Positions 6,827-64,000 are shown, numbered from the stretch's first letter. The stretch is DNA of 64,000 nt from Christensenellaceae bacterium (GCA_031260975.1 JAISKJ010000001.1:5463-69462), one strand, 5' to 3'. Translations and numbers: made by a program. Notes: generated by a model not told the origin, from the sequence alone.

Positions 6827-6835
6827 TATGTAAAC

Positions 6836-6865: not shown

Positions 6866-6889
6866 ATTATAATACCCTCTTTTATTTAA

Positions 6890-28566: not shown

Positions 28567-28848
28567 TCAATCTCCCTTAAATGGAAGCAGTGCAATATTT
28601 CGGGCTCTTTTTATTTCAACTGCCAATACTCGCTGGTGAGCAGCGCACACACCCGTCTGACGTCTTGAAATAATCTTGCCTTTTTCGGTCACATAACGCT
28701 TAAGCGTTGCAGTATCCTTATAATCTATCGCTTTACTCTTATCCACGCAAAACGGACAAACCTTGCGTTTGGGCATACGTTTCTGCTTTCTCGGAGCAGA
28801 TTTCTCTTCGCCCTTTTCATGCACTTCGGTCTTTATTTCTTCTGACAT
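28567..28848 (-). CDS. rpsR: 30S ribosomal protein S18
   Basis: [43 protein letters not shown]. Confidence 0.95.
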
Positions 28849-28886: not shown

Positions 28887-28933
28887 GTTAACACTTCGAT
28901 GCGCCCTTAGATGGACTGCTTTGAAGTGTTAAC
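28887..28933. repeat. perfect 11-bp inverted repeat (GTTAACACTTC/GAAGTGTTAAC) between ssb and rpsR
   Basis: Read directly. The 3' arm abuts the ssb stop codon and the loop is 25 nt. Confidence 0.6.
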
Positions 28934-29405: not shown

Positions 29406-29690
29406 TCAGTCTCTTTTTATAATGATGGTTCTCAAAATTCCGTCGGTTATGTGCATAAGCTTTTCCATTTCAGAGCTGACTTTGGGGTCTGCTGAGTAAT
29501 TCATAAGCACATAAAATCCGTCTTGCTTAAACTTTATCGGATACGCCAAACGTTTGATGCCCATCTTTTCTGTGTTTTCAACAGTGCCTCCGCGAGAAGT
29601 TACATATTCACTGAACTTTTTGATGAGAGCCTCTCTCCCATCCTCGCTGACACTGGGCGTAATGATATAAAGCATTTCGTACTTTGTCAT
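29406..29690 (-). CDS. rpsF: 30S ribosomal protein S6
   Basis: MTKYEMLYIITP..., preceded by AAAGGAGG. Synteny rpsF-ssb-rpsR supports it. Confidence 0.9.
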   Translation of the reverse strand: MTKYEMLYIITPSVSEDGREALIKKFSEYVTSRGGTVENTEKMGIKRLAYPIKFKQDGFYVLMNYSADPKVSSEMEKLMHITDGILRTIIIKRD

Positions 29691-29912
29691 ATTTTTACCT
29701 CCTTTTGGACTAATCGGCCGGGCTTCCCGACAAGGATATGCGGAAAGAAAAAAACAAGTCTGTTTGTTTTCCGCAATCATAAACCAAACGGTTTACTCAC
29801 CTAATATAGCACAACCCAAACAAAAAAGCAAGACAAAAACAAACAAAAAGCGGGGTGCCCTATAGGCAATCCACACGCTTCAATGTTTCATACTTTACAT
29901 TTAATCTTAAAT

Positions 29913-31166
29913 CTATACACTCCCCTGAACATCAACCGTTACCTTAAATGTTATGTGCTTAATATATTCATCTATATTGGGGAGATTGTCAAGGAACTTT
30001 TTAAACTGACGCGTTCTGAACTTATAAAAAGTGTCATAGGCTTCAATAATATCAAAATTATTTTCCTGACTAAGCGTTATAGCTGTGTTAAAATCTTCTT
30101 CTATCTTTTCGGTTATAGCCGCCTTCAAAACCTTGTTTACATTTTCCTTAAGCATATGAAAATTATCAAGGGTATAGCCATCTTGTTTGACTTCAGCCAC
30201 CCTAGCCCTCACTTTAACCTTAAGCTCATATATAGGCGCACCGTCTTCAAAATAGGCCTTTACGTTAGAACTCTTATCCACAATCTCTACACCAACTGTA
30301 GCGTCCTTATACTGTTCACCTGTAACATGTTCAATCATAATGTTTCCGCTTGCGGTATCTTTAAAAAACCATCCGAAAGCTATAACCTCTTCCTTTTCAA
30401 GCATACGCACCTTTTTGCCGTGCTTCAATACAATAGCCTTACCTTCGTTTACAATCTTTTTCTTTCCGCCGCCGCTACCGCCCCCGCCACCTTCACTGCC
30501 GCTGCCGCTGCTGCCGCCCTCACTTCCGCTGCTGCTCTGATCTCCTCCCGATGAACCGGAAGAAGGTTCCTCTTTCACGTCAATACATCCCATACGCGAG
30601 CATCCCGATGGGCTGAAATAGCCTATATAAAAATCGCTCAAAAAAGTCTGCATTCCTCGCAGGTTTACGTTGCTAAACTCTCCCTCTCCTCCCATACTAA
30701 TCGCCAGCGAATTTTGCGTATCAGCGCTGGCATTCAAAAAATCTTTAGCACTCTGCGGTGTATAAATAAGTGCGATATAATTAGTATTAAGCTCAAATCT
30801 AACAAAGTAATCATAAATCTTGGCAATATCACCCTCTGTCACATCTTGGCTTATTACAATAGACTGACAGTGTGAAAACCCTATAGGCTTGCCGAGCTTC
30901 AGTGATAGGTCAGCAATAGTGGCGCTAATATCCCCGTTCTTGCTACTCAAAACATCCACCTTCTTATTAAACTGCCCGCTTGGTGTAGGCACTACATATT
31001 GCAGCGACACCTCATAGCCATTGTCACCGTTTTTATCTATGCCCACACTCGTAATAATCGCATCAGTCTTACTGTCCAAATCCCCAACAAGCACGCCCGG
31101 CAAAAATATTAATATAAGCAGTGCCATTATTATAACTACCTTATATTTTATCAACTTACTTACCAT
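29913..31166 (-). CDS. germinant receptor subunit C (Ger(x)C family), atypical
   Basis: Third gene of a gerA-type operon. The start is set at MVSKLIKYK. It contains a Gly/Ser-rich insertion and has no lipobox Cys. Confidence 0.75.
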   Translation of the reverse strand: MVSKLIKYKVVIIMALLILIFLPGVLVGDLDSKTDAIITSVGIDKNGDNGYEVSLQYVVPTPSGQFNKKVDVLSSKNGDISATIADLSLKLGKPIGFSHCQSIVISQDVTEGDIAKIYDYFVRFELNTNYIALIYTPQSAKDFLNASADTQNSLAISMGGEGEFSNVNLRGMQTFLSDFYIGYFSPSGCSRMGCIDVKEEPSSGSSGGDQSSSGSEGGSSGSGSEGGGGGSGGGKKKIVNEGKAIVLKHGKKVRMLEKEEVIAFGWFFKDTASGNIMIEHVTGEQYKDATVGVEIVDKSSNVKAYFEDGAPIYELKVKVRARVAEVKQDGYTLDNFHMLKENVNKVLKAAITEKIEEDFNTAITLSQENNFDIIEAYDTFYKFRTRQFKKFLDNLPNIDEYIKHITFKVTVDVQGSV

Positions 31167-35921: not shown

Positions 35922-37430
35922 TTAAGGAACATATATCGCAACAAATTTGCCGTCGGGGAGGAAGTTCTCTATATATTCCACGCCGCTGAGCGTGCCGCCA
36001 AGGCCGCCATGCGAAAGTATATCGGTGTAACCCGCATTGGTAAGTTTTATTTCAAAACTCACGCTGTGCCCAATGGTGCTTGCCAAGTCAGTATAATACT
36101 CTATCAGTTTATTCAGCTGCACTACGCTACCCACCAAATGACTTACGTCCTCACTGTTGTGATTTACGGTCAGCTTCTCAAAATAATTATAATCAGTCAC
36201 ATTGTTGCTGCCCACTACAAATTCAGACGTGTGGCTCGGAAGGTTGTCGTCTACCAAGAAGTATGACCTGCTTGCGTATTCATACAAGGTGCTTGTGCCG
36301 CTGTCATACCAATAAGCCATTCCCCAAGTAGTATCAACCCAATGATATTCGCCATCCAGACCGATTTCGTTCCATGCGTGCTTGCCCTGAGCACCGGGAT
36401 TGCCGGCCATACCGTTGACCTTAGTTGAGTATATACCTTCAATTCTGCACATAAGCGCAAAAGCCTTACTAAGCCCGTCACACACCGCAACCTGGTCATC
36501 TAAATCATAAAGTACGCCTTCAAGATGAAATACGCCAAAGTTGCCAAAGGAGTATACGCTGTCATCGCTTATCTCATCCATATAATCAAACAATACATGG
36601 TCATAGGTCACATTCTGAACAATATAGTTGTATATATTAAGCGCCTTCTCATAGTCGGTGAGAGCATCGCTGTTGTTGATTTGTCCAAGAATTGTCCGCG
36701 CGTTTTGATATACTGTATACGCCACGCTGGTGGTATTTGTAAATATGGGTTTTGCGCCGTATTGTGCCGCCATAAACAATTGTGTGGTGTTGTAAACCTC
36801 CACCTCAGTCTCTACGTCATCAATCGGGAAAGTTCTTGTATCGGGAGTGCCCTGAATATACTCCATATCAAAGTCATGATCTTTTGTGGGCTGAGAGTGC
36901 GTGGTTCTAAACTGCATAAGGGTGGGCTTGCCACCTGTGCTTATGTGAGAAACATCTGAAGCAGTAGCGTTTGCCGTGCTCAGCGTAAAATCATTATTGA
37001 GATAATATGTGAAGTTTTGAAGCTGCCAAACCTGTCCGCCGGCGTTTTTGACAACTCTTGTATAAATCTTGCCCGCCTGAGACCCTGAGGTATAAAACAG
37101 CACATTCAGTCCGTCATATTCAGGATAAGTGTTTTGATCGTTGTTTGGGTCGTATATAAACTTGCCCACTTGAGTGTTTAGGTCACCAGCCGAATAGTTA
37201 AGATAAAACTTAACATTATTTTTCCGGTAAAGAATGGTGTGCCATACAAGCATCTTAAGCTCTTCGTTGTTATCTATAACATAATCATAAGTCTGCCCGT
37301 TCATATAAAAAGTTTCGGCCTGATATACCTCGGGGCCTTCTCCGTCAAACCAACTGCAGCCTCCAAAGACAAATCCGGACATTAAAACAACCGCAATCAA
37401 CGCAAACATTCCGTTTCTGATTTTTTTCAT
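35922..37430 (-). CDS. lipoprotein with a transglutaminase-like (Cys-His-Asp) core; paralog of the C-terminal module of 38098..45348
   Basis: Lipobox FVFGGC. Core VAVCDGLSKAFALMCRIEGIYSTKVNG...KHAWNEIG...WVDTTWG. Confidence 0.85.
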   Translation of the reverse strand: MKKIRNGMFALIAVVLMSGFVFGGCSWFDGEGPEVYQAETFYMNGQTYDYVIDNNEELKMLVWHTILYRKNNVKFYLNYSAGDLNTQVGKFIYDPNNDQNTYPEYDGLNVLFYTSGSQAGKIYTRVVKNAGGQVWQLQNFTYYLNNDFTLSTANATASDVSHISTGGKPTLMQFRTTHSQPTKDHDFDMEYIQGTPDTRTFPIDDVETEVEVYNTTQLFMAAQYGAKPIFTNTTSVAYTVYQNARTILGQINNSDALTDYEKALNIYNYIVQNVTYDHVLFDYMDEISDDSVYSFGNFGVFHLEGVLYDLDDQVAVCDGLSKAFALMCRIEGIYSTKVNGMAGNPGAQGKHAWNEIGLDGEYHWVDTTWGMAYWYDSGTSTLYEYASRSYFLVDDNLPSHTSEFVVGSNNVTDYNYFEKLTVNHNSEDVSHLVGSVVQLNKLIEYYTDLASTIGHSVSFEIKLTNAGYTDILSHGGLGGTLSGVEYIENFLPDGKFVAIYVP

Positions 37431-37654
37431 ACTATCTCCTCTATCTTTTATGTTTAAAAACAAAAAATAATAACTGTAAATATTATATTTCTAGTATACC
37501 CACAATTCCACATAAAAACAAGTAAATTTACAAAAATCCTAAACAAATCTTGCCGGCCGTCTATTTTCTATTTTAAGGGGTTGTGCATTTATTCTCTCGA
37601 CGGCAAGTGTCTGATTAGCATTTTTTTTTGTAGTGCTGCGTATGCACCACCATT

Positions 37655-38097: not shown

Positions 38098-41000
38098 TTA
38101 ATGGCTGAATTCTATATATGTTATACGTTTGTTAACATCGTTCAGAGTATGCATAAAGCGGCTTGCAATAAGCCCCGAAACATTAGAGAACAAACTTGAA
38201 TCAAATGTAACCGCTGAGCTTAGGCGTATTTCTATGCCGCTGATTAAGTTAAAGTTTGGAAGCGCTGCATAAGCATTAATCAATGCAGTAAGCTCAACCT
38301 TGCTTTCAATATAGTGATCAAGCCCCACCTGCCCTGTATAGTTTGCATAATAGTTGTGACTTATCGTGGTATTGTTTCCTATCTTATATGTTGCAGTGTG
38401 CAGCGTCATTTCGGTATCGTTAGATAAGAAGTATGCGTGATTTGCAATTGCAGTACTGCCTCCGTTGTCTCTGATAACACCCCATGTTGCATCCACCCAA
38501 TAATAGTTGCCGCCTATCCCAACTTCATTCCATGCATGATTGCCACCGCTTGCTGTTCCGTTTACCTTGGTGGCGTATATACCTTCAATACGGCAAAGTA
38601 GCACAAACGCCTTGGCAATTCCGTCACAAACCGCAATCTGACTGTCTAGGTCAAGGAATATACTTTCAAGATAAAACACACTGAAGTTTCCCCATGAACT
38701 AACTGTGAAGTTTCCTATGCTCTGCATAAAGCCATACAGCACAATGTCATAACTCACTCTGTTGACCAAATATCTATATATATTAAGCGTCTTTTCATAA
38801 TCAGTCAGACTGTTACTGTTGTTAATCTGTTCAAGTACAATCCTTGCGTTCTGGTATACAGCTTCGGCAACGCTCCCCGCCTCAATATTTGGTCTTGTGC
38901 CATACTGCACTGCCATAAATAGTTGCTCGGTGTTATAAACCGGCAACACAGGAGTTACGCTGTCAATTGCAAAGACTCTGCTGGTGGGCAATGCCGTCTC
39001 ATAGCCCGCATTAAACGTTGTTACTTTAGTAGCCTGAAAGTGTGTGTCTTTCCATGCATCCAACCCGCTATACCAAGCAGGTTTGGGGCTTATCCCCAAA
39101 TAATAATCTTCAATCCCCGCCGTAGTAATTATCCTGTCTTTGTCAAGATAATATACAAATCCGGTTACTATATATACCCGGCTTATGCCTGTAGTGTTAA
39201 CTGTAAGTGAATAAGTCAGTCCGTCATACTCGGGATAGCTGCTTCTGAAAATGTTTACTATTGTGTTATTGAGCGTGCCGCCCGACCATGGGTTTGCAAG
39301 ATAAAATCTCAGTGTTGTCTTTTGATATAAAATAGCATGGTGAATAAGCAGTTCAAGTTCTTGTTCATCTTCTATATAATAGTCTTTAATCTCACCATTC
39401 ATAACATACTTGGCCCGCACAAAATGCTGAACGTCGGTCATAGAAAACATATAAATCTCAGTCTGGTCAAAAATCTTATCAAGTTCTGTGTGATGTCCGC
39501 CTATGTCAAGTGCGTCATTATAAACAATAACCCTCACTTGATAGGTGCCGTCGGCCCACAAATACTGTGTCAAATCCAAACTTGTTTTGGGGCCGTTATA
39601 AACTTCTATACCGTCCACAAATACCGCCATGCCCGTGCTCGTCCCCGTTTGAATTTCCATAAAATCAGTGGTGGTGCTGTCAATATTCTGCACACTCATA
39701 TAAACCGGCGGGTCATAGAAATTTGAACTCAAAACTATTGTTACATTAAGCGTATAAGTTTCTATAAAAATTTCATCAACTCCGTCGCCGTCAAGGTCAT
39801 AAGAGATAAATACCGTCATCAGCACCAGCGCTATTGTATAGTCTGACCCCGAAAAAGCCGTTTGAAGAGCAACTAGGTTTGTAACAGTTAGAGTGTATGT
39901 GTCGTCACTGTCGTCATAGGGTGTGCTGTTGTCGTTGTGAACAATTGACACATTGCTCAAAATCGCAGAGGTATTATTTATTGGGTCAAGCTCAAACGTA
40001 ACATGCTGAATGTCGTTGTCAGTGGTTCCATCATTGTCAAAGTCTACACTCGGGTCATGGTCACCCGTAGAATCTAGATATATCGCATATCTGTTTTGCT
40101 GAGACTGAAGATAGGAATTTATGTCATTTAACACAACCTGCAACAAGTCCGGCCCGTTGCTTTGAACTCCAAGATTATTCTCAAGAATAAACTCAATGGG
40201 CGCAAACGTAATAGTCTTGGTTATATCAGCAGCTCCGCCGCCCGTAAAGTATATAGTCATATTAACGTCAACACTGAACGAAACAGTCATTTCATAAGCT
40301 TTTAACTGAATTATGTTGTTAACAACTCTATGCTGCACTCTGTCAGCATCAACTCCCGTTATGCTGTTTACAACAACACCAACAACTGTCTGACCGTGCT
40401 TGCCATTAAAGCTATCCAGACTATACCATGTGTTGTCGCTTGGCAGTGTAACACTTGCGCTTTGGTTAATCGTCACGTCCCCGCTGCCCCAAACCGAATT
40501 CAAAACAACTTTCATTTCTATAGTATAAGTTATCACATACTTTACCTCAGCCGCGTCATAAACCGGAACATGAATAAGCACCGGCAAAATAATGTAGTTT
40601 ACGTTGGGATTTGCCAACAGAATTGAGGCATAGTTTATAGCAAGCGTATAGTTGTCTCCGCTCAAATTAATTTGAGCGTCGCCCGGACCAAGGTTGGTGC
40701 CCGTTCGGTCAACCTCAAACGGGTTAGTTCCGCTAAGGTCAGCATACAAAATTGCCTTTTCAATATAATCAGCAAGCAAATCGTCATGGCCCAAAGTGTC
40801 AAATCCGTAGGTCTGGGTTATGATGAGGGGGTTAAGCAATCTTGTTTGGTCTCCAAGCCCCATCTCATCGTCTAAAAACCAAAAGGTATCAAGATTTGGC
40901 TCAACGGTTATAACTTTGGTAATTATTACTTCAGCCCCGTCAACAAAGTGAAGAGTTACAACAAGCGTCACTTGATATTCTTCAGTAGCTTCAAAGCCTC

Positions 41001-44000
41001 TCACCTTCAAAATGTTGCCGGTTGTAGTATAATCCACCCTACCGGCATAAGTGCCCTGTTTTGATACGTTTATATAACTAAGCCTTGCGCTCTGTCCGTG
41101 AAGGTCAATATCAAGCGTATTATAAACTCCGTCGCCCGTAATTGCTATGTCAGAGTTACTCAAAAGAGTTATATCTTGTTCACTCCACAGGTTATTTAAA
41201 ACTATGACGCATGGCAAGCTGACTTCTTTTGCGCTCAGCACGGCCCCGCCGCCAAGGTTAACTTCTGCAATAACAGTCCTGACATAAATCTTTATCTCGT
41301 TAGTTCCCGTAAAGTTGTTTATCAAAAGCATAGGGTCACCGCTGTTATATACGATTTTAACAAGCCCCACAAAACCTGCATCAACAAGGCCTTGCAGGTT
41401 ATTAAACCCTGCACTAATGAGATTTTGTGCACTGACAGATAAGGCAGCAACAACGCCTGCATCAACAAGATTCTGTGCACCAATAACTCCGATATCAAAA
41501 AGGGTCTGCACATTTATGAGAGTTTGCAGATTTATGCTGCCGGCAATAAGGAAGCCTTCGTCAATAAGGCGCTGCTGAGTGGTAAGCCCCTTATTAATAA
41601 GAGTTTGCGCCGTAACAGTTGTAGAACTGATAACGCCCTTATTAACAAGACTTAGCGCATTAATAATTCCGACATCTATAAGCTCCTGCACATCTATAAG
41701 CTGCTGTATATCAATAAGCCCTGCAGCAGTAAGACTTCCTGCGTCAAGCTGATAGGTAATCTCGCTAGGACTAACACCGGTAAGTCCGTTAAACATTTCA
41801 AATACTGTATTAAGGTCAATTCCGCCAAGGTCGGGCGCGTCAATCACGGCCTTGCCGGTAAATACTCCGTCCGCTTCATGCTGATAAGCCCCATCTATGT
41901 CAAGGCTGAAAGGTGTTGTAAAGAGTATATTGTGATAAGCAATACTGAAGCTGCTGAGCCCTATTTTTAATCCCACAACCACAGTTGTGTTAGATGGGAT
42001 ATCCTGCAGAACTTCTATCATAAGATTTCCATCCAGCGCAAACACTCCGCCACCTGATATGCTTAAGTTGATAAGTCTGCTGAGTGTTACGTTGCTATAC
42101 CCGCCCTGAACAACATTGTTCATCATAACAGGTGTGCCATTGGCGGCTGTAATATTAAAGTTTATTCGGTTAAACAGGTTCACCACAGCGCTTTCTGACC
42201 CGACATATTCTGTTGCTGTATCTGTTTCAGAAGCGGTTATCTCAAAGCCGTAAACCGTGAAAGTATATGAAGCCACAGCCTCAGTGTAAACCTGCCATGA
42301 ATAAGTAGTTGTTCCGGTATACACAAATCGTCCGTTTCCGCTGGCGGGCCTCACAGTAACAACAATTTCATATCCGTTTACGTTATAAGGAACATTGCCT
42401 ATCACCAGAATATATCTGCTGCCGTCAAAAATCACATTAGCTATCGAGGTATCAACATTCAGTTCAAATATCGGGGTCATACCATCCACAACGCTTCCGC
42501 CAAGCTCGCTATAAAACCTGTGTTCAAGAGCCGTTAGGTCCACAACAGTTCCATTGAATGTTGTGGGTAAGCCTTCAACCGCTAAATTCCACACAATGCT
42601 GCCGCCTGAGTTCATATTGGCAGCCCAAATGCTCTTTGAACTGCTGCCCTCAGACACACTGCCGTTATAAAAGTCCAGCACCGCTGCTTTTATAACTCTA
42701 TCCTCAACGGTCATAAAATAATCTTTAATAGCTGTATATTCACTTCCATACTGAGCACCTACTGCAATTTTAAATATCGCCGGAACAGAAGTTGTAGTGT
42801 TACCGTTGTTATATTCAATGGTGTCAATATCTCCTATATCAATTTTATAGCTATATCCTATCAGAGTACCCGTGGCAGGATTTCCGTTGTCATAAACCTC
42901 TGTCCAGCTGTTAATGTCAAGGCTTAACTTGCCGCCGTTTTGCAAAATTCCATAAGCCGAACTATAGCTTACGTTCAGGCTCATAAAACCCGTTCCAACC
43001 ATTTGTGTCAAAAGACCAATCGGAGTACTTGTATTTTCAACCGACAGCACCAGATAATATGTTTCACTCTCAGCTACCGTAAGAGGCAGATATACCGTAG
43101 GATCTCCTGCGCCGCTGTCAATCTGATCAAGCTTGACACCTGCTCCGTCGGTCAAATAAATATTAAGCTGATCAATCTTGTTAGTCACCACTACACTCGT
43201 TTCGGCTGACTTATATTGAATATAATCACCGTTTATGTCTCTTATGTTGGCACCCTGTCTGGTTGTTGCCACAATCACAGCATAAACCCTAAACTCACCG
43301 TAACCCTTTGCACTGAAAGTAGCATCGGTAGCATCAATCAGTCCTGTTGAGCTGTTAAACTGTTCGTTTGGAACATACAGCGTAATCCATCTGTTGGTGT
43401 TTACAAAGTCTTTATCCTTAACCTTAAGGTAGGGGTAAGTATTATATACTATTGATGGTGCAACACCGACGCCCTCATAGAACTTAACGTTGCGCATAAT
43501 TTCGGGGTTACCCAAAACATGGTTAACGCTGTCGGCAACTGAAGACTGTCCGCCCGAAGTGGTTATGGTAATGTCATTGCCATATTGTGCCTTAACCCAA
43601 TCGGTAAGGTTGCTTGCACTGTCAGCCCATGTAAATGTAATACTTACATTGCTGGGGTTGGTCAGCCCCTCACACACTGCCCTAATACGTCCGCTCGCCC
43701 CTACCAGCGCACTCGTTCCGATTACGCCGCCGGTTGTGTTGTCAGTGTTAATATAATGCCACGAAACATTAGCAAAGCCAACACCGCCCTGCATAACCTG
43801 AGGGCCGATGCCGTCGGTCTTAACAAAGTCAAACGTAGTTTTATATGTCCCTGCAGCTGACGGAATATAGTCAATGTCAGCCGGATTTAGATAGAACATA
43901 AGATTTGAGAATGTAATAATTCCGCTGCCGTCATCCTGAATAGTTACATACTTCTGACCGGCCTGAGAGCCACCCAACGACAGCTGCTCGGGGTTTTGGG

Positions 44001-45348
44001 TTATATCCTTGCTGCCGTCAATCACAAAGTTATTCATGCCCTTATAGTTTATATTCACTATGTCTATGCCCGGCAGTCTGGGTTTTATGTTCACAGTTAT
44101 AGTCTTTTCAATAAGCGTCCCTTCAAAGGTAGTAAAGCTTGCCTTAAGCGTCACGTTAAGTCCAACGGGGCTCAGCATAGCCGCATCAAAATTAATCGGT
44201 TCCACACGCCACTTGGTGCCTGTCCCCGAGGTGCCCGCAACTTTGGTTATGTTAAGATATGTGGTATCCTGCTCGGTGATTGTCACTCCGCCCAAAAACT
44301 TATCTAGCACACTTGCGTCATAGTTGTTGTCAACAGGAATGAGCCTGAGACCAAAGTTTGGCAAAGAGTTGTCGGAGATATAAGCCAGAAAATCCGTTTC
44401 TTCATAAAGGTAAAGCGGCAAAACACTGCCTGTTGCTTCAAGGTCGTCAACTCTCACATCCTGAACCGCAAATTCTTCGATGGAAGTCATTACAAAAAGG
44501 TCAGTTGAACGCTCTCTTAAAAGACCAAAAATATCAGCATTTGAATAAGTGCTGTAATAATCGTTATCCTTAAAGTTTTTAAACATACAGGCCTGAACAT
44601 AAAAATATCTCTGTTCATCGCGCACCTGCAAAACTGTATTGCTTGTCACCTGCGTGCTGTTTATGGCATTTATCCAAGGTTGGCCGTTGATGCTAAACCC
44701 TGCCACATTGCTACCTGTGTTAAGAAGCATGCTTCCTGCGTTGTCTTCAAGCAAAAAATAGTATATCGTTTTGTTTCGGTCAAAGGGACTAACTCCTACA
44801 TCTAAATGACCGGGGTTTCGCGCGTTTGACGGAAGCACTTCAATGCGACTGTTAAAAAAGCCGTCAAAATTCACCCATGAGTTGAGAGAAAAGATATTGT
44901 TGTCAAAATCATCAAACCCTAACTCATTGGCAGTAGTGTCCACATAAATTACCAATTCCTGAGATTGCACAAGCTGATTCTCGGTATAGGCCGTAATTCG
45001 GGCCACTCCGCCGTGGTTATTCCCGTTTTGGTCTTTGGTTGCAAAAACCTGAAAGTGCCTGCCAACTTCCGCCGTAGGCGGCACCTGCAAAACCTCAGGC
45101 TTGTCTACCCTGAGCATAATTTTGGTTTCAGTCACATCCGCCGTAGTTGTAATAACAAGCAAGTCAAACCCGCCTGTTATGATTGTGCCGCTGCTTGTCG
45201 TAAAACTCAAATCGTGCGGAGCTACAACCGGTTTATTGTTGCCAAACAACAACACTCCGCCAAAAATCAAGGCAAACGCACCTACAACGCAAGCAGCCAC
45301 AATTCCCACAACCTTAAGAACTTTTTTGGCGCTTAATTTTACTGCCAT
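38098..45348 (-). CDS. giant (about 2416 aa) membrane-anchored surface protein with a C-terminal transglutaminase-like module
   Basis: Uninterrupted 7.3-kb ORF with AAAGGAGGAG before ATG 45348. N-terminal TM VVGIVAACVVGAFALIFGGVLLF. C-terminal IAVCDGIAKAFVLLCRIEGIYATKVNG...NHAWNEVG...WVDATWG. Confidence 0.9.
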   Translation of the reverse strand: MAVKLSAKKVLKVVGIVAACVVGAFALIFGGVLLFGNNKPVVAPHDLSFTTSSGTIITGGFDLLVITTTADVTETKIMLRVDKPEVLQVPPTAEVGRHFQVFATKDQNGNNHGGVARITAYTENQLVQSQELVIYVDTTANELGFDDFDNNIFSLNSWVNFDGFFNSRIEVLPSNARNPGHLDVGVSPFDRNKTIYYFLLEDNAGSMLLNTGSNVAGFSINGQPWINAINSTQVTSNTVLQVRDEQRYFYVQACMFKNFKDNDYYSTYSNADIFGLLRERSTDLFVMTSIEEFAVQDVRVDDLEATGSVLPLYLYEETDFLAYISDNSLPNFGLRLIPVDNNYDASVLDKFLGGVTITEQDTTYLNITKVAGTSGTGTKWRVEPINFDAAMLSPVGLNVTLKASFTTFEGTLIEKTITVNIKPRLPGIDIVNINYKGMNNFVIDGSKDITQNPEQLSLGGSQAGQKYVTIQDDGSGIITFSNLMFYLNPADIDYIPSAAGTYKTTFDFVKTDGIGPQVMQGGVGFANVSWHYINTDNTTGGVIGTSALVGASGRIRAVCEGLTNPSNVSITFTWADSASNLTDWVKAQYGNDITITTSGGQSSVADSVNHVLGNPEIMRNVKFYEGVGVAPSIVYNTYPYLKVKDKDFVNTNRWITLYVPNEQFNSSTGLIDATDATFSAKGYGEFRVYAVIVATTRQGANIRDINGDYIQYKSAETSVVVTNKIDQLNIYLTDGAGVKLDQIDSGAGDPTVYLPLTVAESETYYLVLSVENTSTPIGLLTQMVGTGFMSLNVSYSSAYGILQNGGKLSLDINSWTEVYDNGNPATGTLIGYSYKIDIGDIDTIEYNNGNTTTSVPAIFKIAVGAQYGSEYTAIKDYFMTVEDRVIKAAVLDFYNGSVSEGSSSKSIWAANMNSGGSIVWNLAVEGLPTTFNGTVVDLTALEHRFYSELGGSVVDGMTPIFELNVDTSIANVIFDGSRYILVIGNVPYNVNGYEIVVTVRPASGNGRFVYTGTTTYSWQVYTEAVASYTFTVYGFEITASETDTATEYVGSESAVVNLFNRINFNITAANGTPVMMNNVVQGGYSNVTLSRLINLSISGGGVFALDGNLMIEVLQDIPSNTTVVVGLKIGLSSFSIAYHNILFTTPFSLDIDGAYQHEADGVFTGKAVIDAPDLGGIDLNTVFEMFNGLTGVSPSEITYQLDAGSLTAAGLIDIQQLIDVQELIDVGIINALSLVNKGVISSTTVTAQTLINKGLTTQQRLIDEGFLIAGSINLQTLINVQTLFDIGVIGAQNLVDAGVVAALSVSAQNLISAGFNNLQGLVDAGFVGLVKIVYNSGDPMLLINNFTGTNEIKIYVRTVIAEVNLGGGAVLSAKEVSLPCVIVLNNLWSEQDITLLSNSDIAITGDGVYNTLDIDLHGQSARLSYINVSKQGTYAGRVDYTTTGNILKVRGFEATEEYQVTLVVTLHFVDGAEVIITKVITVEPNLDTFWFLDDEMGLGDQTRLLNPLIITQTYGFDTLGHDDLLADYIEKAILYADLSGTNPFEVDRTGTNLGPGDAQINLSGDNYTLAINYASILLANPNVNYIILPVLIHVPVYDAAEVKYVITYTIEMKVVLNSVWGSGDVTINQSASVTLPSDNTWYSLDSFNGKHGQTVVGVVVNSITGVDADRVQHRVVNNIIQLKAYEMTVSFSVDVNMTIYFTGGGAADITKTITFAPIEFILENNLGVQSNGPDLLQVVLNDINSYLQSQQNRYAIYLDSTGDHDPSVDFDNDGTTDNDIQHVTFELDPINNTSAILSNVSIVHNDNSTPYDDSDDTYTLTVTNLVALQTAFSGSDYTIALVLMTVFISYDLDGDGVDEIFIETYTLNVTIVLSSNFYDPPVYMSVQNIDSTTTDFMEIQTGTSTGMAVFVDGIEVYNGPKTSLDLTQYLWADGTYQVRVIVYNDALDIGGHHTELDKIFDQTEIYMFSMTDVQHFVRAKYVMNGEIKDYYIEDEQELELLIHHAILYQKTTLRFYLANPWSGGTLNNTIVNIFRSSYPEYDGLTYSLTVNTTGISRVYIVTGFVYYLDKDRIITTAGIEDYYLGISPKPAWYSGLDAWKDTHFQATKVTTFNAGYETALPTSRVFAIDSVTPVLPVYNTEQLFMAVQYGTRPNIEAGSVAEAVYQNARIVLEQINNSNSLTDYEKTLNIYRYLVNRVSYDIVLYGFMQSIGNFTVSSWGNFSVFYLESIFLDLDSQIAVCDGIAKAFVLLCRIEGIYATKVNGTASGGNHAWNEVGIGGNYYWVDATWGVIRDNGGSTAIANHAYFLSNDTEMTLHTATYKIGNNTTISHNYYANYTGQVGLDHYIESKVELTALINAYAALPNFNLISGIEIRLSSAVTFDSSLFSNVSGLIASRFMHTLNDVNKRITYIEFSH

Positions 45349-45430
45349 AACTCCTCCTTTGTGTAGTATGAGCAAGTTGCCTACCCGTTATTATAAAACG
45401 ATAAAATGCCATATAACTATATACAATATA

Positions 45431-57738: not shown

Positions 57739-58689
57739 TTATTCTTTATTTTCATCCTTGGGCTCAACTACAAATATAGTTTTTGGAGTTGCGACCTTTT
57801 TTGCAGCCGGTTTTTTGGCCGCAGGCTTTTTAGCCGTAGTTGAAGAAGTTTTCTTTTTAGGTGCTTTTTTAACCTCTACTTCAAACTCGCCAACTGCCAT
57901 CGTAACTTTAGTTTCTTTAGATGTAGCTTTTTTAGCCTTTGCTTTTTTAGCTGCTGTTTTCTTTTTGGCAGCTTCCTTTTTTTCCTTTTCCTTAACTATA
58001 TCAGCAACTTCATCCATTGCGTCCTTAGTCTTGGGAGCAGCTCTCTTCTTTGCGTCATCCTTAATGATAATAACCTGTGTGGTGCCTTTGCCTGCTTCTG
58101 CTGCCTTAACCTGCTCAGCGGACTTAGCATCCTTTTCTTTACCGGCATCCACAATCTGGTGCTGTTCATCGCTTGAAGCAAGAACCGTCACAAGCAAACT
58201 TGTAAATGTGTTTACAAACAAGTAAGCCGCAGTCAGCAGATAAAGCTCTGTCTGGTTGTTAAAGTTCTGAACAAACAGCATTACACCAAATATAAGGTTT
58301 ATGCCTCCGTCAATCATAATTCCGGCAAACGGTGAGCGCTCTATTACATACTTAATAGACATTGCAAGCTCTACAACTCCGGCAGTAAGCAGCCAAATTC
58401 CAAATATCAGAGGAAACAGTCCGGTAGTAGTTATCAGCGCCAGAGCAATTATGCCCCAAACGGCATCCATCGCTCCCAATACAAAGTTTGGAATACTATC
58501 CTTTTCATGTCTCGCAAACCAGCCATAAAGCAGACGGGCCACACCAATAGCCAACACACCAAGACCCATAACGAGTAGCAGCGTAATTTCATTGGCAAAC
58601 CCTGCAATTGCCGACATTATTATACCAAGAACAAACAGCAGCAGCGCGCTTCCAATCGGCAAAAGTTTAAATTTATTTGCAACCTTCAT
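57739..58689 (-). CDS. HdeD/DUF308-like multi-TM protein with a Lys/Ala-rich (histone H1-like) C-terminal tail
   Basis: Six hydrophobic helices, then KKRAAPKTKD...AAKKKTAAKKAKAKKATSKE...TTAKKPAAKKPAAKKVATPK. Confidence 0.7.
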   Translation of the reverse strand: MKVANKFKLLPIGSALLLFVLGIIMSAIAGFANEITLLLVMGLGVLAIGVARLLYGWFARHEKDSIPNFVLGAMDAVWGIIALALITTTGLFPLIFGIWLLTAGVVELAMSIKYVIERSPFAGIMIDGGINLIFGVMLFVQNFNNQTELYLLTAAYLFVNTFTSLLVTVLASSDEQHQIVDAGKEKDAKSAEQVKAAEAGKGTTQVIIIKDDAKKRAAPKTKDAMDEVADIVKEKEKKEAAKKKTAAKKAKAKKATSKETKVTMAVGEFEVEVKKAPKKKTSSTTAKKPAAKKPAAKKVATPKTIFVVEPKDENKE

Positions 58690-58893
58690 ACTTTTCTCCT
58701 TTTGTTTTCATATATTTTACTACAAAATAAAGTTTATTGCAAACGATTGCACACAATTTGTCAAACCTAGTCTTTTAAAAATCCTACCCCTCCTTATCAC
58801 ATAATGGTGCACAGTTTTGAGTTTTTATAAATGATAATAACGTATAAAAACTTTATATTGAAATGTAAAATGGTTTTATAAGATAAAACTTAT

Positions 58894-59122
58894 TTATCCA
58901 CAGTTGGCCTCATTTTTTGTGCACAAAATCTGTGAAACTCAAACATTTTGTCATACCCATTGTGGACAACTTTTGATTTTTTGTGGATAAGTGGATAACT
59001 TTTGTATAAAACCACCCATATATGCATGAAAATGATTAAACATAAACAATTTTAATATTTATAAATCATAATGAATAATTATACCATTGTGGATTGGTGG
59101 ATAACTTTTTCTGTTTTCCACA
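58894..59122. other. DnaA-box cluster with an AT-rich core (oriC-like or DnaA-binding element)
   Basis: Two perfect boxes: TTATCCACA at 58894-902 and TGTGGATAA at 58982-990. Four one-mismatch boxes: 58961-969, 58990-998, 59096-104 and 59114-122. An AT-rich stretch spans 59004-59086. Confidence 0.7.
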
Positions 59123-59202
59123 AATGCACAAAACATAACCCTAATTCCTCCAGAATTATACAATATATTGAATATATGTTAAAAGCTCTCACTTAACAAG
59201 CC

Positions 59203-60630
59203 TCAGCTCTTCTTTGGCCCGATTATGCTCACTTCACTTTTAGGCAACGTCATACCTTGAGGAAGCTCATCAGCACCTTCATAAACTATGCCGTATTGCG
59301 GCATATAGCTCTCACGCCTCAGCGGAATTTCTTTTATAAGCTTCCCCTCTTCATAATAAGCAATATAGCTCTGAACTTCATATCCCACTTTTGGGTAACT
59401 TTCTCTTATATATTCACCCTTAAACATTATCCTATCAGCATACTTCCCTTCAAGGTCAAGCACAACACTGTCTCCGTTGTGCGGAATTTCTTTAATCACT
59501 TTTGAGCTTGTTTTAATTGTCTGTCCTTCTTCAAGAGTGTTTCCGAAAATAGTAAAAGTCAGTTTGTTGTCAACATTCTCGGCTTTTATAAAAGCGGGAT
59601 ATTTGCTGATGTTTTTAAATTTGAGATCGGCAGTACTGTAACTCACCATAGCATCAAGCGCAAGAGGCGCATAACTTATAGGCAGTGAATGTTTGTGTAC
59701 CTCCACAATATCTATGCCGGCAAGAACCAGAGCATTATACAGTGTAGTAGAAACCTGACACACGCCGCCGCCCACGCCCTTTTCAAATTTTCCGCCGGTG
59801 ATAATATTTGCCTCGGCATAACCGGCTTCCCCTGTTCTTACGCCCACAATCTGGTTGAATGAATATGTCTTATCAGGTTCCAGCATCAGTCCGCTCAAAG
59901 CACTGCTGGCAAGTTTAATGTTATTTTTACGCTCTGTTATAGATGATCTGTAGTCGGTAGTGAAGCTTGATATCTTACGCGTTGCATTTTCAAAATACTC
60001 TTCGTTGTGCTCAGGCTGTATTTCAGTGGCCACTACATAAACCACCACATGCGGGCTGAGCTGCAAGCCTGTTATAATATCATCAATAAGCTGGGCTTTG
60101 TCCACCTTTATAGCAGGCTGGCTTTTGGTTATCTTAAAAGGCTCTTTCAGTTTCGGGTCAAATGTAATAGTGCTCTCCACTTCTTCCTGTTCAATTTCCG
60201 AAAGAATTGCCTCCATCTTTTCTTCAATGTTGTCAAATATATAATTTAAAACAAACTTATCCTCAGCCCCCAAACCGCGAAGCTGTCTGATTGCCTGAAG
60301 GCGTCTAAAAAAGCTGTCGTCAAATTCCCTGCTATATACATCGTCAATCAACTGCTTTGCATTGTGCTTAGTGCTGAAGTTGGCACCATTAAACTGCCAC
60401 ACCTTGTCTTTATATATTATGTCTAAAGTGGCCTCACCTGCAAGCTCCTTAGCATACTCATCAAGCTTGTTATAAGCTTGCGTTCTAGAAAGCCCGCCAA
60501 TGTCCACTCCGCCTACGGTCGTGCCTTCATTAAACACCTGAGAACTGCTTTTGTCCGTGGCAAACAAAAATATAGCGCCGAACACCAGCACTGCCACAAC
60601 CAAAATGCTTGCTATAATCCTCGTTTTCAT
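59203..60630 (-). CDS. VanW family protein
   Basis: N-terminal TM, then YSFNQIVG...GYAEA..I.GG....GVGGGVCQVSTTLYNA, typical of VanW. Confidence 0.85.
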   Translation of the reverse strand: MKTRIIASILVVAVLVFGAIFLFATDKSSSQVFNEGTTVGGVDIGGLSRTQAYNKLDEYAKELAGEATLDIIYKDKVWQFNGANFSTKHNAKQLIDDVYSREFDDSFFRRLQAIRQLRGLGAEDKFVLNYIFDNIEEKMEAILSEIEQEEVESTITFDPKLKEPFKITKSQPAIKVDKAQLIDDIITGLQLSPHVVVYVVATEIQPEHNEEYFENATRKISSFTTDYRSSITERKNNIKLASSALSGLMLEPDKTYSFNQIVGVRTGEAGYAEANIITGGKFEKGVGGGVCQVSTTLYNALVLAGIDIVEVHKHSLPISYAPLALDAMVSYSTADLKFKNISKYPAFIKAENVDNKLTFTIFGNTLEEGQTIKTSSKVIKEIPHNGDSVVLDLEGKYADRIMFKGEYIRESYPKVGYEVQSYIAYYEEGKLIKEIPLRRESYMPQYGIVYEGADELPQGMTLPKSEVSIIGPKKS

Positions 60631-61070
60631 ACTAAACTCCTTAAAGTTAGTATGTAAAACCTAAAAATAAATTATACAGGGGAATTCCCTTGAACAACCC
60701 CGATCAGTGAAAATAATTTTCTTTTTGTCAGAAAGAAAAAATCACCCTCTATAGTTGACTTACAATAAAGCTAATACCCCTCTTTATTATATATTCCACG
60801 ATTTATTTAACTTAATTATAGAACATTTTGACAGCTTTTGCAAATTTTTCCGCTCTTTTTGATGCAACCAATTTGGACAAAAGCATTGACACAGCAGACA
60901 TAATTTGTTAAACTGTTATTATTGATTCTAAGAGACTTATCAAACTTTTTTAAAACCGCGCTGGAAAACCAATGATAATGGCAACTCGCCACTATAGTCA
61001 ATAAATCCGAATATTTCCAAGATAGACAATTATGACAAGTCAACGCAGAAACCAAGCAACTTTAATATGT

Positions 61071-61161
61071 GGAGAGGTACTCAAGAGGCTCAAGAGGATG
61101 CCCTGCTAAGGCATTAGTACGGGAAACCGTAGCGCGGGTTCAAATCCCGCCCTCTCCGCCA
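61071..61161 (+). tRNA. tRNA-Ser (anticodon GCU), CCA encoded
   Basis: Folded by hand. Acceptor GGAGAGG/CCTCTCC, anticodon stem ATGCC/GGCAT with loop CTGCTAA, long variable arm TACGG-gaaa-CCGTA, and T arm GCGGG-TTCAAAT-CCCGC. Confidence 0.95.
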
Positions 61162-61163
61162 TG

Positions 61164-61188
61164 AACCACAACATGTTGTGGTTTTTTA
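61164..61188 (+). terminator. terminator hairpin immediately after tRNA-Ser
   Basis: AACCACAAC-at-GTTGTGGTT, then TTTTT. Confidence 0.7.
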
Positions 61189-61240
61189 TTGAGTGGCACA
61201 AGATGTTGATTTAGAATTGTTACTATACAGAAAAAACCGA

Positions 61241-61293
61241 GGTAGAAAAATTGGTAGAAATGCAAAATTTTTGGTAGAAAAGATTTTTCTACA
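61241..61293. repeat. three direct GGTAGAAA repeats plus one inverted copy (candidate integrase arm-type sites)
   Basis: GGTAGAAA at 61241-48, 61253-60 and 61273-80. The inverted TTTCTAC overlaps the int stop codon. Confidence 0.55.
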
Positions 61294-62533
61294 TTTCAAA
61301 GCTTTTGTTCTTTTTTGCTTTTAATGCTACAAGTTCGGCTTCGAGACGGGCTATTTCGTTATCTTCATCAGTGGTAATTTTGTCTTCGAAAATTTTCATA
61401 ACTTGTTTTGCTGTTTCGGTTTTGGAGGTGGTATCCAGATGCGAATAAATATTTGCTGTGGTTTCGTAGGTACTATGACCAAGCCATTCCTGAATTTGCT
61501 TCATGGGGATTTTATATGCTAACAGTAGGCTTGCACAACTATGACGCAGTTCGTGAAAGCGGATTCTAGGTAAGCTTGTGTGTTTAATAATCCTATGGAA
61601 ATTATCGGAAAGGTATTGGGCTTTTAGCCGCTCACCCATGTCATTTATACAGATGTATTCTTGAAACTTTTTGGAGTATGCATTCTTGTATCTTTCTTTG
61701 TTTTCATTTTGTCTTTGTTTTTCATTAAGCAGAAGTTCTTTGATAAATGGCAATAGAGGATAGGAACGATAACTTGAATTGTTTTTTGTTGAGTCCTTAG
61801 CGAGCTCAATTCTTTTGCCGTCAATTTTAGTTTCTACAATAGTATGCTCAATCAAAATTTCGTTGGTGTGAAAATTGATGGCGTTCCAACGCAGTCCTAA
61901 AACTTCACTTCGCCTGAGTCCGTAAGCTACGGTTAGTTTGTAGATATAGTCATATCTATTTCTTTCGGTGGCTTCAAATAATACCTTTAACTGTTCGTAG
62001 TTGTAAAACTTTGAATTATACTTCGGGCTTCTTGGGCGTTCAATTTTATCTGCCGGATTAGAGGGAATAATTTCTCCGATTACAAGAGATTGCAGGCACT
62101 TTCGTATATTGACATGGAAATGTTCACAGACCTGTATGGACTTGCCTAAATCCTGCATATCTTTGTAGAACTTTTGCAGGTGAAATGGTCGCAGGTCTGC
62201 AACCTTAATTTGAATGGGTTTAAAATATTTCGTAATCTGTGCCACTTGCAATTTGTATGAGTTGTATGTAGTTGCCTGTAAGTTCCCGCGAAGGTTATCT
62301 AACCATAAATCCAGATACTCATGAAACATCAAGTCTTCAAGTGGTGATGATTCTCTCTTACTTTTGATTTCAAAATTGTTAAGTTCTTTGCGCAGCATGT
62401 CTTCTGCTTTTCTTTTGTTCCCTTTTTCATCAAGCCCGGTAGCTATCCATTTTTGTTTTGTGTTATCTTCTAAATCCTTGTATTTAATGACGGCATAATA
62501 TTTGCCGTTTTTTACTGCCAAATATCCGTTCAT
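61289..62533 (-). CDS. int: tyrosine-type site-specific integrase
   Basis: GLRRSEVLGLRW, HELRHSCASLLL and LGHSTYETTANIYSH (R..H-x-x-R..Y catalytic pattern). Confidence 0.9.
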   Translation of the reverse strand: MNGYLAVKNGKYYAVIKYKDLEDNTKQKWIATGLDEKGNKRKAEDMLRKELNNFEIKSKRESSPLEDLMFHEYLDLWLDNLRGNLQATTYNSYKLQVAQITKYFKPIQIKVADLRPFHLQKFYKDMQDLGKSIQVCEHFHVNIRKCLQSLVIGEIIPSNPADKIERPRSPKYNSKFYNYEQLKVLFEATERNRYDYIYKLTVAYGLRRSEVLGLRWNAINFHTNEILIEHTIVETKIDGKRIELAKDSTKNNSSYRSYPLLPFIKELLLNEKQRQNENKERYKNAYSKKFQEYICINDMGERLKAQYLSDNFHRIIKHTSLPRIRFHELRHSCASLLLAYKIPMKQIQEWLGHSTYETTANIYSHLDTTSKTETAKQVMKIFEDKITTDEDNEIARLEAELVALKAKKNKSFEM

Positions 62534-62733
62534 TTTTTAACCCCCATAAAAAAATATTCAATAACATCTGTTTTGGCTATCAAATATTTCTTTCCTATTT
62601 TCTTTGAGTAAATCAGTCCTTTGTTTACAAGTTTGTACGCATAGTTTTTTCCTATCTTTAACATGGCAGCAAACTGTTGCATATCAAGCACATCCGGATA
62701 CTCATTAAATATTTCATGTTTTATGATGCTCAT
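62530..62733 (-). CDS. xis: excisionase-type small HTH DNA-binding protein
   Basis: 67 aa. LDMQQFAAMLKIGKNYAYKLVNKGLIYSKKIGKKYLI. Overlaps the int start by 4 nt. Confidence 0.7.
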   Translation of the reverse strand: MSIIKHEIFNEYPDVLDMQQFAAMLKIGKNYAYKLVNKGLIYSKKIGKKYLIAKTDVIEYFFMGVKK

Positions 62734-63315
62734 AATAGTTAACCTCGCTTTTATTTATTTTGCTTTATTAGGGCATAAAAAAGAAGTGGGTGTCCCACTT
62801 GCGATGTATTGGGAATGTGGCTCAAAATTGGTTCAGGGGGTTGTTCAGAATGAATCACCCTGAACATCAGTATTTTAAAGAGATTTATCTCTTTAAAATC
62901 TGATTTTGAGCCAAATGCTTATCCTGCTTGGAATAAAATGCATAGCTATACCATAGTTTTTCTTTCCTCCTTAATTATTTTTTTGAAAAGATAAACAGCG
63001 AATTTTTAATTCGCTGTTTGGAGGGTAATAATTTTTAGGTTTAAACTTTTACAAAGCTCGATGTTTTTTTGAACTTATTTCGTTGTCCTATTGAAATTTC
63101 TTTTCTAAAAAACAAATACCCCTCTACTATATAACTACATTTTTTTGTCAAAAGGTGTCCCGCTTTTTCATGTTTTTACAAAAAAAGTTGAAAAAAGACT
63201 TTTTTTCTCCCTTTCCTTTGGCGCGAATAATTAACAAATTAAATACAAAAATATTACAGAAAAATATAGGAACTCAGTCAGATTGGATTTAATGACAAAT
63301 TTAAAGGGGGCTTGT

Positions 63316-63411
63316 ATGTTTTATGAACTATGTCGCAAAAAAAGATTTAATCCTTTGATTTGTGATGGAGGATTCTTTGACCAACTATTAATCAATTTAA
63401 TAAAAGTTTAA
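63316..63411 (+). CDS. possible 31-aa peptide
   Basis: ATG preceded by AAAGGGGG. Translation MFYELCRKKRFNPLICDGGFFDQLLINLIKV. No other support. Confidence 0.2.
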   Translation: MFYELCRKKRFNPLICDGGFFDQLLINLIKV

Positions 63412-63496
63412 TTTGTAAAATGTAATAATTCTGCTATAATAAGAAATATAAAATAATGATAGAAGAATTAAATTTGAGATAAAAGGGGAATTTGAT

Positions 63497-64000
63497 ATGA
63501 AACTTATATTGGCGAGTGATTTTAATAATATTCAAAAAGATCAACAAGGCAATAAGTATGCTGTGCCATTTGCTGACTCTAATTTATTTTTAACAAACAT
63601 AAAAAAATATACATTGCGATATAAAAACCTTGTATTTATTGTCAGCAATCCTGAAACATTAGAGATTAATAATTTTTATGGTAATTTGTTATTTGAATCT
63701 CTAAAACTTTCAAAAATTGATTTTGAAAAGAAAACTATTCTTGACAATCGAAATAAGAATGATGCTCCAGAGATAATAAAGGATGCGGATTTAATTTTTT
63801 TGTCTGGAGGCAAAGTTGATATACAATCAAAATTTTTAAATGAAATAAATTTAAATGAACATTTAAAAAATTACACTGGCTTGCTAGTTGGTGCATCTAG
63901 CGGTGCAATGAATTTATGTAATAGAGTGGTAAGTTTCCCTGAAAATTTAGAGGAAATTAACAAGAATAGCTTATCAAAGTATTTTTTGAATGGTCTTGGT
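63497..64000 (+). CDS. peptidase S51 (dipeptidase E)-like / class I glutamine amidotransferase-like protein (partial)
   Basis: My own translation from ATG 63497, after AAAAGGGGA: MKLILASDF...ADLIFLSGGKVD...LLVGASSGAMNLC. Open to the window end. Confidence 0.55.
   Translation, partial: MKLILASDFNNIQKDQQGNKYAVPFADSNLFLTNIKKYTLRYKNLVFIVSNPETLEINNFYGNLLFESLKLSKIDFEKKTILDNRNKNDAPEIIKDADLIFLSGGKVDIQSKFLNEINLNEHLKNYTGLLVGASSGAMNLCNRVVSFPENLEEINKNSLSKYFLNGLG

Follow-up and report, generated by a model that had tools for sequence, protein, structure and literature searches.

A conserved, origin-like module of DnaA boxes next to vanW in uncultured Clostridia is probably a secondary DnaA-box cluster

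The intergenic region between vanW and the gene of a DUF308/HdeD-like membrane protein contains a conserved module of DnaA boxes (58869..59126, no strand assigned), which was delimited with an nhmmer profile derived from alignment A1. All coordinates refer to the window, i.e., the whole 64-kb stretch of DNA that was analyzed. The module is predicted to bind DnaA, and it is probably a self-contained chromosomal unit, a secondary DnaA-box cluster that resembles the part of a Firmicute origin in which the boxes lie and does not mark the point of divergence of the replication arms. Secondary DnaA-box clusters are already known; the present family appears to be undescribed, unusually structured and deeply conserved.

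Results

DnaA boxes are enriched between vanW and the DUF308-like gene

The gap between the gene for the 316-aa membrane protein and vanW, in which the box cluster lies, has a length of 513 bp and a GC content of 27% (72.5% A+T over the whole 513 bp). Six DnaA boxes with at most one mismatch, two perfect and four with one mismatch, are found within 229 bp of this gap, and they represent 6 of the 24 such boxes of the 64-kb window. An earlier note on this DNA had listed the perfect and the one-mismatch boxes, and every one of them was recovered at the coordinates given there. As a null model, the sequence of the 513-bp gap was shuffled 5000 times with its dinucleotides preserved. The shuffles contained on average 0.31 and at most three boxes with up to one mismatch, and none of the 5000 reached the observed six. 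When two mismatches were allowed, 10 boxes were observed and 3.2 expected, and 10 were reached in 1 of the 5000 shuffles. A box density no higher than in AT-matched shuffled sequence, which the note had named as an argument against any DnaA-related function, was thus not found. Four boxes with two mismatches were detected (58917 and 58918 on the plus and the minus strand, respectively, and 59001 and 59088, both on the minus strand), two more than previously counted.

The window contains one other perfect DnaA box, at 30274-30282. It is isolated, without a surrounding cluster, and lies within a gerAC-like ORF about 500 bp upstream of rpsF.

The module consists of two tandem box pairs, an AT-rich spacer and outer boxes

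Box B2 of the module is a perfect TTATCCACA on the plus strand (58894..58902). It is followed by B3 on the minus strand (58961..58969), which has one mismatch and reads TGTGGACAA on the plus strand. Tandem box pair 1 (58982..58998, minus strand) is formed by TGTGGATAA and GTGGATAA, which follow each other with a step of 8 bp and have one base in common; the second perfect TTATCCACA box of the region is at 58982-58990 on the minus strand, and a one-mismatch box starts at 58990. Tandem box pair 2 (59088..59104, minus strand) combines a weak box and a strong box, TGTGGATTG and GTGGATAA, and the strong box is the one-mismatch box at 59096. Box B8 (TTTTCCACA, one mismatch) is again on the plus strand (59114..59122).

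The two pairs are contained in 23-mers (58981-59003 and 59087-59109) that had been described as direct repeats at a distance of 106 bp, and the repeat analysis led to the same result. They had also been called iteron-like. As the 23-mers are DnaA-box pairs, this label was abandoned, and the term tandem DnaA-box pairs fits better. Each 23-mer comprises a weak box and a strong box that overlap by one base (TGTGGATnn followed by GTGGATAAC, 8-bp step). At unrelated loci that were recovered by a pattern scan of metagenomes, the step between tandem boxes was mostly 11-12 bp. Pairs with an 8-bp step were rare among these loci, and three of them directly followed DnaA-trios of the TAGTAGTAG type and a GC cluster. 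At one locus (L010), the 8-bp-step pair, directly after the DnaA-trios, is located downstream of a dnaA gene, at a distance of about 285 bp. The occurrence of 8-bp-step pairs after trios indicates that the 23-mers match the box pair of origin unwinding sites (PMC8287927), and not plasmid iterons.

The spacer between the pairs (59004..59087, no strand assigned) had been described as an almost pure A/T core of about 85 bp. The length was nearly exact, with 84 bp, and the purity was overstated, with an A+T content of 81%. A/T-tracts recur about every 10 bp, a phasing that was judged by eye from the sequences of the lineages, and they might confer intrinsic curvature. A nearest-neighbour stability scan identified the least stable 30-mer of the module at 59053..59082 (no strand assigned), which is a candidate melting segment. 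Among the 30-mers of the 64-kb window it shares the second rank for low stability and belongs to the top 0.02% of positions, a low stability that is matched comparably by other intergenic segments of the window.

Most triplets next to pair 2 lack the bases that are captured by DnaA

Pair 2 is oriented correctly toward the AT-rich spacer. At the expected position of DnaA-trios, 13 nt from the strong box, the plus strand reads AAT AAT TAT (59074..59082), i.e., three NAN triplets. A distance of 13 nt is the commonest box-to-trio spacer in a published search for origin-unwinding modules, and the module formally satisfies the pattern used in that search, namely a box, at most 16 nt and three NAN triplets (PMC8287927). 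The triplets at the trio position, (A/T)AT AA(T/A) (T/A)AT, are kept across every lineage.

DnaA captures the 3′-GA-5′ dinucleotide of the trios, and 3′-AA-5′ is tolerated (PMC10721633). Canonical DnaA-trios were not found in the module, and most of its triplets contain neither of the two dinucleotides (PMC10721633). When trios were defined as at least three repeats of 3′-[G/A]A[T/A]-5′ beside the box pair, none were scored. Runs of the strict trio motif, of up to three repeats, occurred in two copies of the module, elsewhere in the copy and at non-homologous positions. True origins that were matched by the metagenome scan carry TAGTAGTAG beside the same type of pair. The strict trio scan was non-discriminating on dnaA-linked controls, where the pattern probably matched mostly the rpmH-dnaA side, and therefore the trio comparison made use of individual canonical examples (L010, L110, L027, L115 and L120).

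The alignment of the relatives did not reveal a conserved promoter inside the module, a terminator was not found there, and the Spo0A-box-like 18-mers of repeat family D1 showed no conservation. Just past the vanW stop, a near-consensus promoter of the sigma-70 type (TTAACA-16-TATAAT, 11/12, 59182-59155, minus strand) is aimed at the module and the DUF308-like gene. A structured RNA or riboswitch was considered as well and rejected, as an Rfam scan of 58600-61300 (E<=1) returned only the tRNA and chance overlaps of the tRNA.

The module is conserved in diverged lineages

Relatives were gathered by a VanW search of genome collections and of contigs encoding VanW homologues. The module of about 260 bp adjoins vanW in eight diverged lineages of uncultured Clostridia, with VanW identities to the window of 81% (L134-136), 56% (L004), 46% (L143), 45% (L147) and 41% (L002 and L003). 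The nhmmer profile matched L002, L003, L004, L134-136, L143 and L147 with E values of 1e-33 to 1e-67, and it matched in part L038, which has a shortened form of the module. VanW homologues with 37-44% identity that reside in another gene neighbourhood are not accompanied by the module.

In relatives without the module, a transglutaminase-like gene of about 680 aa immediately follows vanW. The window contains a 2425-aa ORF (38098-45375, minus strand), the sole Pfam match of which is a C-terminal transglutaminase-like core, and a second transglutaminase-like gene at 35922-37463.

Box positions were counted from the strong box of pair 2, which was set to 0. The offsets of B3 (-135), of the two boxes of pair 1 (-114 and -106) and of the strong box itself are fixed in all seven full-length copies. 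The strong box of pair 2 is invariant in all lineages, and its distance from pair 1 is 106 bp (104 bp in L038). The outer boxes are placed less strictly. At the B2 position, a box is found at -200 to -202 in six lineages and at -211 in L134, and it is absent in L038; at the B8 position, three lineages have a box at +18 and two have one at +28. The spacer has a length of exactly 84 bp in each of the six lineages tested, and its mean ungapped identity among six lineages is 0.67, versus 0.35 for shuffles, which shows that the sequence is constrained, and not the A+T content alone.

Metagenome and viral sequences were searched for pairs of GTGGATAACTTT(T) at a distance of 88-98 nt. More than 120 matches were obtained, and nearly all of them were unrelated DnaA-box regions, including many dnaA-linked origins. 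L038 was the only match of the module type, and the remainder served as positive controls.

Flanking genes and orientation of the module

The gene to the left of the module (57739..58689, minus strand) encodes the 316-aa DUF308/HdeD-like membrane protein and is transcribed away from the module. The protein shares 32-36% identity with the proteins that L002 and L003 encode downstream of the module. Its previous designation as HdeD-like is loosely supported, by a weak DUF308 match of the homologue in L147, while the window protein itself is without a Pfam match. To the right, vanW (59203..60630, minus strand; VanW and PG_binding_4 domains; protein MDR0849909.1 of a Christensenellaceae metagenome-assembled genome, MAG) points with its 3′ end toward the module. 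The module is linked to vanW in 8 of 8 lineages, and the order vanW, module, DUF308-like gene is preserved in 6 of 8. Across lineages, the module is located 25-205 bp upstream of the start of the DUF308-like gene.

Relative to vanW and the DUF308-like gene, the module of the window and of L134 is inverted compared with L002, L003, L143 and L147, and both flanking genes retain their order and strand despite the inversion. In L004, the module is located between spoIIE and queH, and in L038 its neighbour is hup. The inversion, the different neighbours and the lack of a conserved internal promoter suggest that the unit would function independently of its orientation and of the adjacent gene.

Between tRNA-Ser and vanW, the window and L134 differ. 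The tRNA-Ser gene is present in L134 with 96% identity, and a gene for a 143-aa protein and rmuC lie between it and vanW. A comparison of window positions 60631-61070 with L134 523-2990 showed that about 2.3 kb, comprising these two genes, are missing in the lineage of the window. The 143-aa protein has no Pfam match. No rmuC was found in the window by tblastn; in most of the recovered relatives, rmuC is located directly upstream of vanW.

The module probably lies within one replication arm

Left of the cluster, 36 of 42 genes are on the minus strand, so that the strand bias pointed out earlier was confirmed, and the rpsF-ssb-rpsR genes and dnaB, which had been cited together with it, were located as well (dnaB 6890-8335, rpsR 28567-28848, ssb 28933-29349, rpsF 29406-29780). 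In B. subtilis and C. difficile, spoIIE, tilS, rpsF-ssb-rpsR and dnaB are origin-proximal, and the module itself may also be origin-proximal. A parS site, as a marker of origin proximity, was not found within the window.

The GC3 skew left of the module is -0.17 for minus-strand genes and -0.24 for plus-strand genes. For vanW of the window it is -0.12, and vanW has the same sign and the same strand as the minus-strand genes on the left; its total skew is -0.18, versus -0.195 ± 0.07 for the left neighbours. In L134, genes on either side of the module have a positive GC3 skew, namely +0.54 for rmuC, +0.15 for vanW and +0.16 to +0.44 for the right-hand genes. A switch of the GC3 skew across the module was not observed in the window (judged by vanW), in L134 or in L147. 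In L002, L003 and L004 the GC3 skew is near zero, and the gene strand was used instead. A gene-strand switch at the module was not found in six relatives, for which flanks of several kb to about 10 kb were recovered. The flanks of L002, L003 and L038 are predominantly co-oriented on either side of the module. In L147, spoIIE, tilS, cca, rmuC, vanW, the module, the DUF308-like gene, a gene for a 178-aa protein and an ABC transporter gene follow one another on one strand, and L143 has the same gene order on a single strand, beginning at tilS.

A side observation is that in L147 (5954-18548) most genes on the plus strand have a strongly negative GC3 skew (-0.17 to -0.47), and those on the minus strand a positive one. 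This sign is opposite to that in L134, and the relation of GC3 skew to the coding strand differs between lineages.

A cumulative skew analysis, which the earlier note had proposed as a check, gave a minimum at about 61-62 kb of the window. This is the edge of the low-GC island at tRNA-Ser and not the cluster. The turn at about 61 kb coincides with a drop of the GC content from 39% to 30% at the integrase-bearing island, and to the right of this boundary the plus strand carries the tRNA-Ser gene and the genes of the island, and the skew is positive. The strand switch near the module is 1.5 kb away in the window, at tRNA-Ser, and 3.9 kb away in L134.

The earlier statement that no dnaA is in view also held. 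A tblastn search with a DnaA sequence as query was positive in 43 unrelated control loci, which validated the query, and gave no match in the window, in L001 (to the equivalent of window position 68.6 kb) or in any locus of the family. The search covered 59 kb to the left and 9.6 kb to the right of the module, and up to ±10 kb around the module in the relatives. The module most likely lies inside one replication arm and not at an arm boundary, and its distance to oriC exceeds the DNA in view.

An integrative island starts at tRNA-Ser

The adjacent integrative element that had been noted earlier was verified: tRNA-Ser(GCT) (61071..61161, plus strand), outside the module, is the attachment site of an island with a GC content of about 30%, versus about 39-40% for the chromosome, and a tyrosine integrase gene and an HTH_17 excisionase-like gene occupy 61289..62733 (minus strand), so that all three features fall into 61071-62733. 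The island begins at the 3′ end of the tRNA gene, extends over the window from 61071 to 64000 and continues in L001 from 1 to 7400. A 16.9-kb Logan contig reaches 4.6 kb past the end of the window and is still inside the island. In addition to the integrase and the excisionase-like protein, the island encodes an S51 peptidase, a 323-aa protein and two radical-SAM proteins. In L134, a different low-GC gene, which is lipoprotein-like, follows the same tRNA.

Discussion

A probable secondary DnaA-box cluster that would dock DnaA well and open DNA poorly

A secondary cluster of the B. subtilis kind was one of the readings offered by the earlier note, and it is favoured by the box enrichment, the conservation, the lack of an arm boundary at the module and the absence of dnaA. 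Several boxes of the high-affinity type were found, in an intergenic region and outside the location of oriC, as is typical of such clusters. In B. subtilis, secondary clusters restrain initiation and regulate neighbouring genes, and they have been argued to be widespread among Firmicutes (PMC3245932).

What we infer for the module is that DnaA binds to it, that its DNA is bent and poorly unwound, that the origin is near and that initiation is affected. DnaA would bind cooperatively at eight or nine boxes in a fixed register. As the distance of 106 bp between the two pairs corresponds to about ten helical turns, the pairs would lie on the same face of the helix. The 84-bp spacer between them, with its phased A/T-tracts, is probably bent and would be melted easily. 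Since same-face pairs would thus flank a bent and meltable spacer, a compact, possibly looped DnaA oligomer could assemble on the pairs and the spacer. The AAT, AAA and TAT triplets are mostly devoid of 3′-GA-5′, and, because trios that DnaA could capture are lacking beside pair 2, the complex would be expected to dock DnaA well and to open the DNA poorly. The role of the module may be to hold or modulate DnaA near the origin, like the clusters of B. subtilis and datA of E. coli, and the transcription of the adjacent DUF308-like gene may be set at the same time. Counting against a simple sink, the module has a more origin-like build, as shown by its origin-type pairs, the very unstable AT-rich segment next to pair 2 and the triplets at a distance of 13 nt.

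Alternative explanations

The module could instead be mainly transcriptional. Bound DnaA would then repress or activate the DUF308-like gene, or block read-through from vanW, and thereby couple expression to the replication status. We regard this explanation as unlikely. The clusters at yydA, ywlC and sda of B. subtilis are analogues, and such clusters regulate their neighbours (PMC3245932). The placement of the module between vanW and the DUF308-like gene in 6 of 8 lineages, the short distance of 25-205 bp to the gene start and the promoter-like site at 59182-59155 (11/12), which reads into the module, would all suit an operator. However, two lineages have the module in the reverse orientation with respect to the gene, it has different neighbours in L004 (queH) and L038 (hup), a conserved promoter element within the module is absent, and the 106-bp phasing together with the conserved 84-bp spacer goes beyond the usual needs of an operator. 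It is plausible that a transcriptional effect is combined with a titration role, and hence this explanation and the preferred one, a secondary DnaA-box cluster, do not exclude each other.

A more specific function has a small probability in our view. In Firmicutes the module, conserved at a single syntenic site in a broad clade of uncultured Clostridia, might correspond to datA or DARS. As a stereospecific mimic of an origin it would not merely absorb DnaA; it would load DnaA onto the tandem pairs around a bent and meltable spacer and thereby change its oligomeric or nucleotide state. Alternatively, it might be a conditional second origin.

That the module is the true chromosomal origin, uncoupled from dnaA, is very improbable. 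The dense boxes, the tandem pairs of the origin type, the unstable AT-rich core and the divergent orientation of the boxes are all features of an origin, and deep conservation is expected of origins. The strand distribution also looks suitable at first, with nearly all genes on the left on the minus strand, and with tRNA-Ser and the island on the right on the plus strand and having a positive skew. However, the skew turn at about 61 kb is the GC drop at the island. Moreover, vanW, and in L134 also rmuC, lie on the wrong side of the module for an arm boundary and have the strand and the GC3 skew of the other side, and the recovered flanks of six relatives are without a strand switch. DnaA-trios with 3′-GA-5′ are absent, and neither dnaA nor dnaN is in view. 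The oriC reading of the earlier note is therefore not supported, as there is no switch of skew or strand at the module, no dnaA and no canonical trios.

It is highly doubtful as well that the module acts as an auxiliary or conditional origin, or as the distal half of a split origin with widely separated parts. In the former case, the spacer would be opened and helicase loaded only under certain conditions, e.g., during spore outgrowth; in the latter, the module would loop to a dnaA-linked cluster. This would agree with the match to the unwinding-module pattern, including the modal 13-nt spacer (PMC8287927), and with the highly unstable 30-mer beside pair 2. Precedents are bipartite origins in B. 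subtilis and C. difficile (PMC7561715) and oriCII of Pseudomonas, an origin-like region that has now been shown to be transcriptional (PMC13438810). However, most of the triplets do not offer the bases captured by DnaA (PMC10721633), skew analysis of the window and of L134 found no compositional trace of forks starting at the module, and the two parts of the split origins known so far are separated by dnaA alone, at a distance of about 1.4 kb.

Finally, an integrated plasmid, phage or conjugative element could have contributed the module as its iteron-bearing origin. The origin of an integrated replicon had been considered in the earlier note, and it is suggested by the integrative island 2 kb away and by the iteron-like first impression of the 23-mers. 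This reading can be dismissed with near certainty: the 23-mers are DnaA-box pairs, the module lies between two chromosomal genes and on the chromosomal flank of tRNA-Ser, the attachment site, seven other lineages have the module as well, among them relatives without the island, and in none of the seven is this integrase found beside it, blastn gave no match among 72,556 plasmids and 50,697 phage records, and 0 of 9 pattern matches on viral contigs passed the module profile.

Comparison with known DnaA-binding regions

The secondary-cluster reading places the module next to the clusters of B. subtilis (PMC3245932), with which it shares intergenic boxes of the high-affinity type on a Firmicute chromosome, off the origin. 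Like them, it lies beside a possibly regulated gene and may be origin-proximal, and it would be expected to restrain initiation by holding DnaA. In contrast to the module, the Bacillus clusters precede different genes in different species (PMC3245932). The module is one unit of about 260 bp that keeps its register at the level of single bases across lineages in which the flanking protein is only about 41% identical, and, unlike the Bacillus clusters, it has origin-type tandem pairs with a conserved AT-rich spacer between them.

The datA, DARS1 and DARS2 regions of E. coli (PMC5742627) are likewise short and non-coding, and have a few boxes of fixed spacing and orientation around a bendable segment, to which the box register and the possibly bent spacer of the module would correspond. 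They act on DnaA and are not origins (PMC5742627), and the same is proposed for the module. A sequence relationship between the module and datA or DARS does not exist. To our knowledge, IHF and Fis are absent from Firmicutes, and therefore any bend of the module would be intrinsic or HU-dependent; no site of a bending protein could be assigned in the module. In B. subtilis, DnaA is controlled mainly via cooperativity factors and not via its nucleotide state (PMC4447404).

The unwinding module of Firmicute oriC, with boxes 6/7, trios and AT-rich DNA (PMC8287927, PMC10721633, PMC7561715), shares with the present module the pair of a weak and a strong box with an 8-bp step (as in L010), the 13 nt to three NAN triplets and the unstable AT-rich stretch beyond. 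In contrast to it, the present module has no GC cluster and no 3′-GAT-5′ trios, most triplets being 3′-TAA/TAT-5′; it carries a second identical pair across the spacer in direct orientation, and it is located away from dnaA and without a skew switch. The oriCII region of P. aeruginosa (PMC13438810) is also an origin-like DnaA-box region distinct from the working origin; DnaA binds to it for a different purpose, as would be the case for the module. It differs in phylum and sequence, and it is located at gidA beside the true origin region.

A search of the literature retrieved nothing that links DnaA boxes to vanW or describes origins of Christensenellaceae. Initiation control is poorly known in Firmicutes beyond B. 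subtilis, and we know of no datA- or DARS-like site that has been defined in Firmicutes outside this species. As a non-coding element that keeps an exact register across diverged lineages, the module is a ready test object, and it could show how pairs, spacing and missing trios separate the docking of DnaA from the opening of DNA. It is also a warning, because predictors that score box clusters and AT-rich DNA would call the module oriC in fragmented metagenome-assembled genomes.

Another arrangement of box pairs was observed on an unrelated metagenome contig of the Ga type (L110, about 9620-9735), the 14-kb locus of which is without dnaA. Two modules, each with a box pair plus trios, face each other symmetrically around an AT-rich centre of about 40 bp, in the order TTATCCACTTATCCACC, CTACTAC..., AT-rich centre, ...TAATAGTAATAG, and then GGTGGATAAGTGGATAA.
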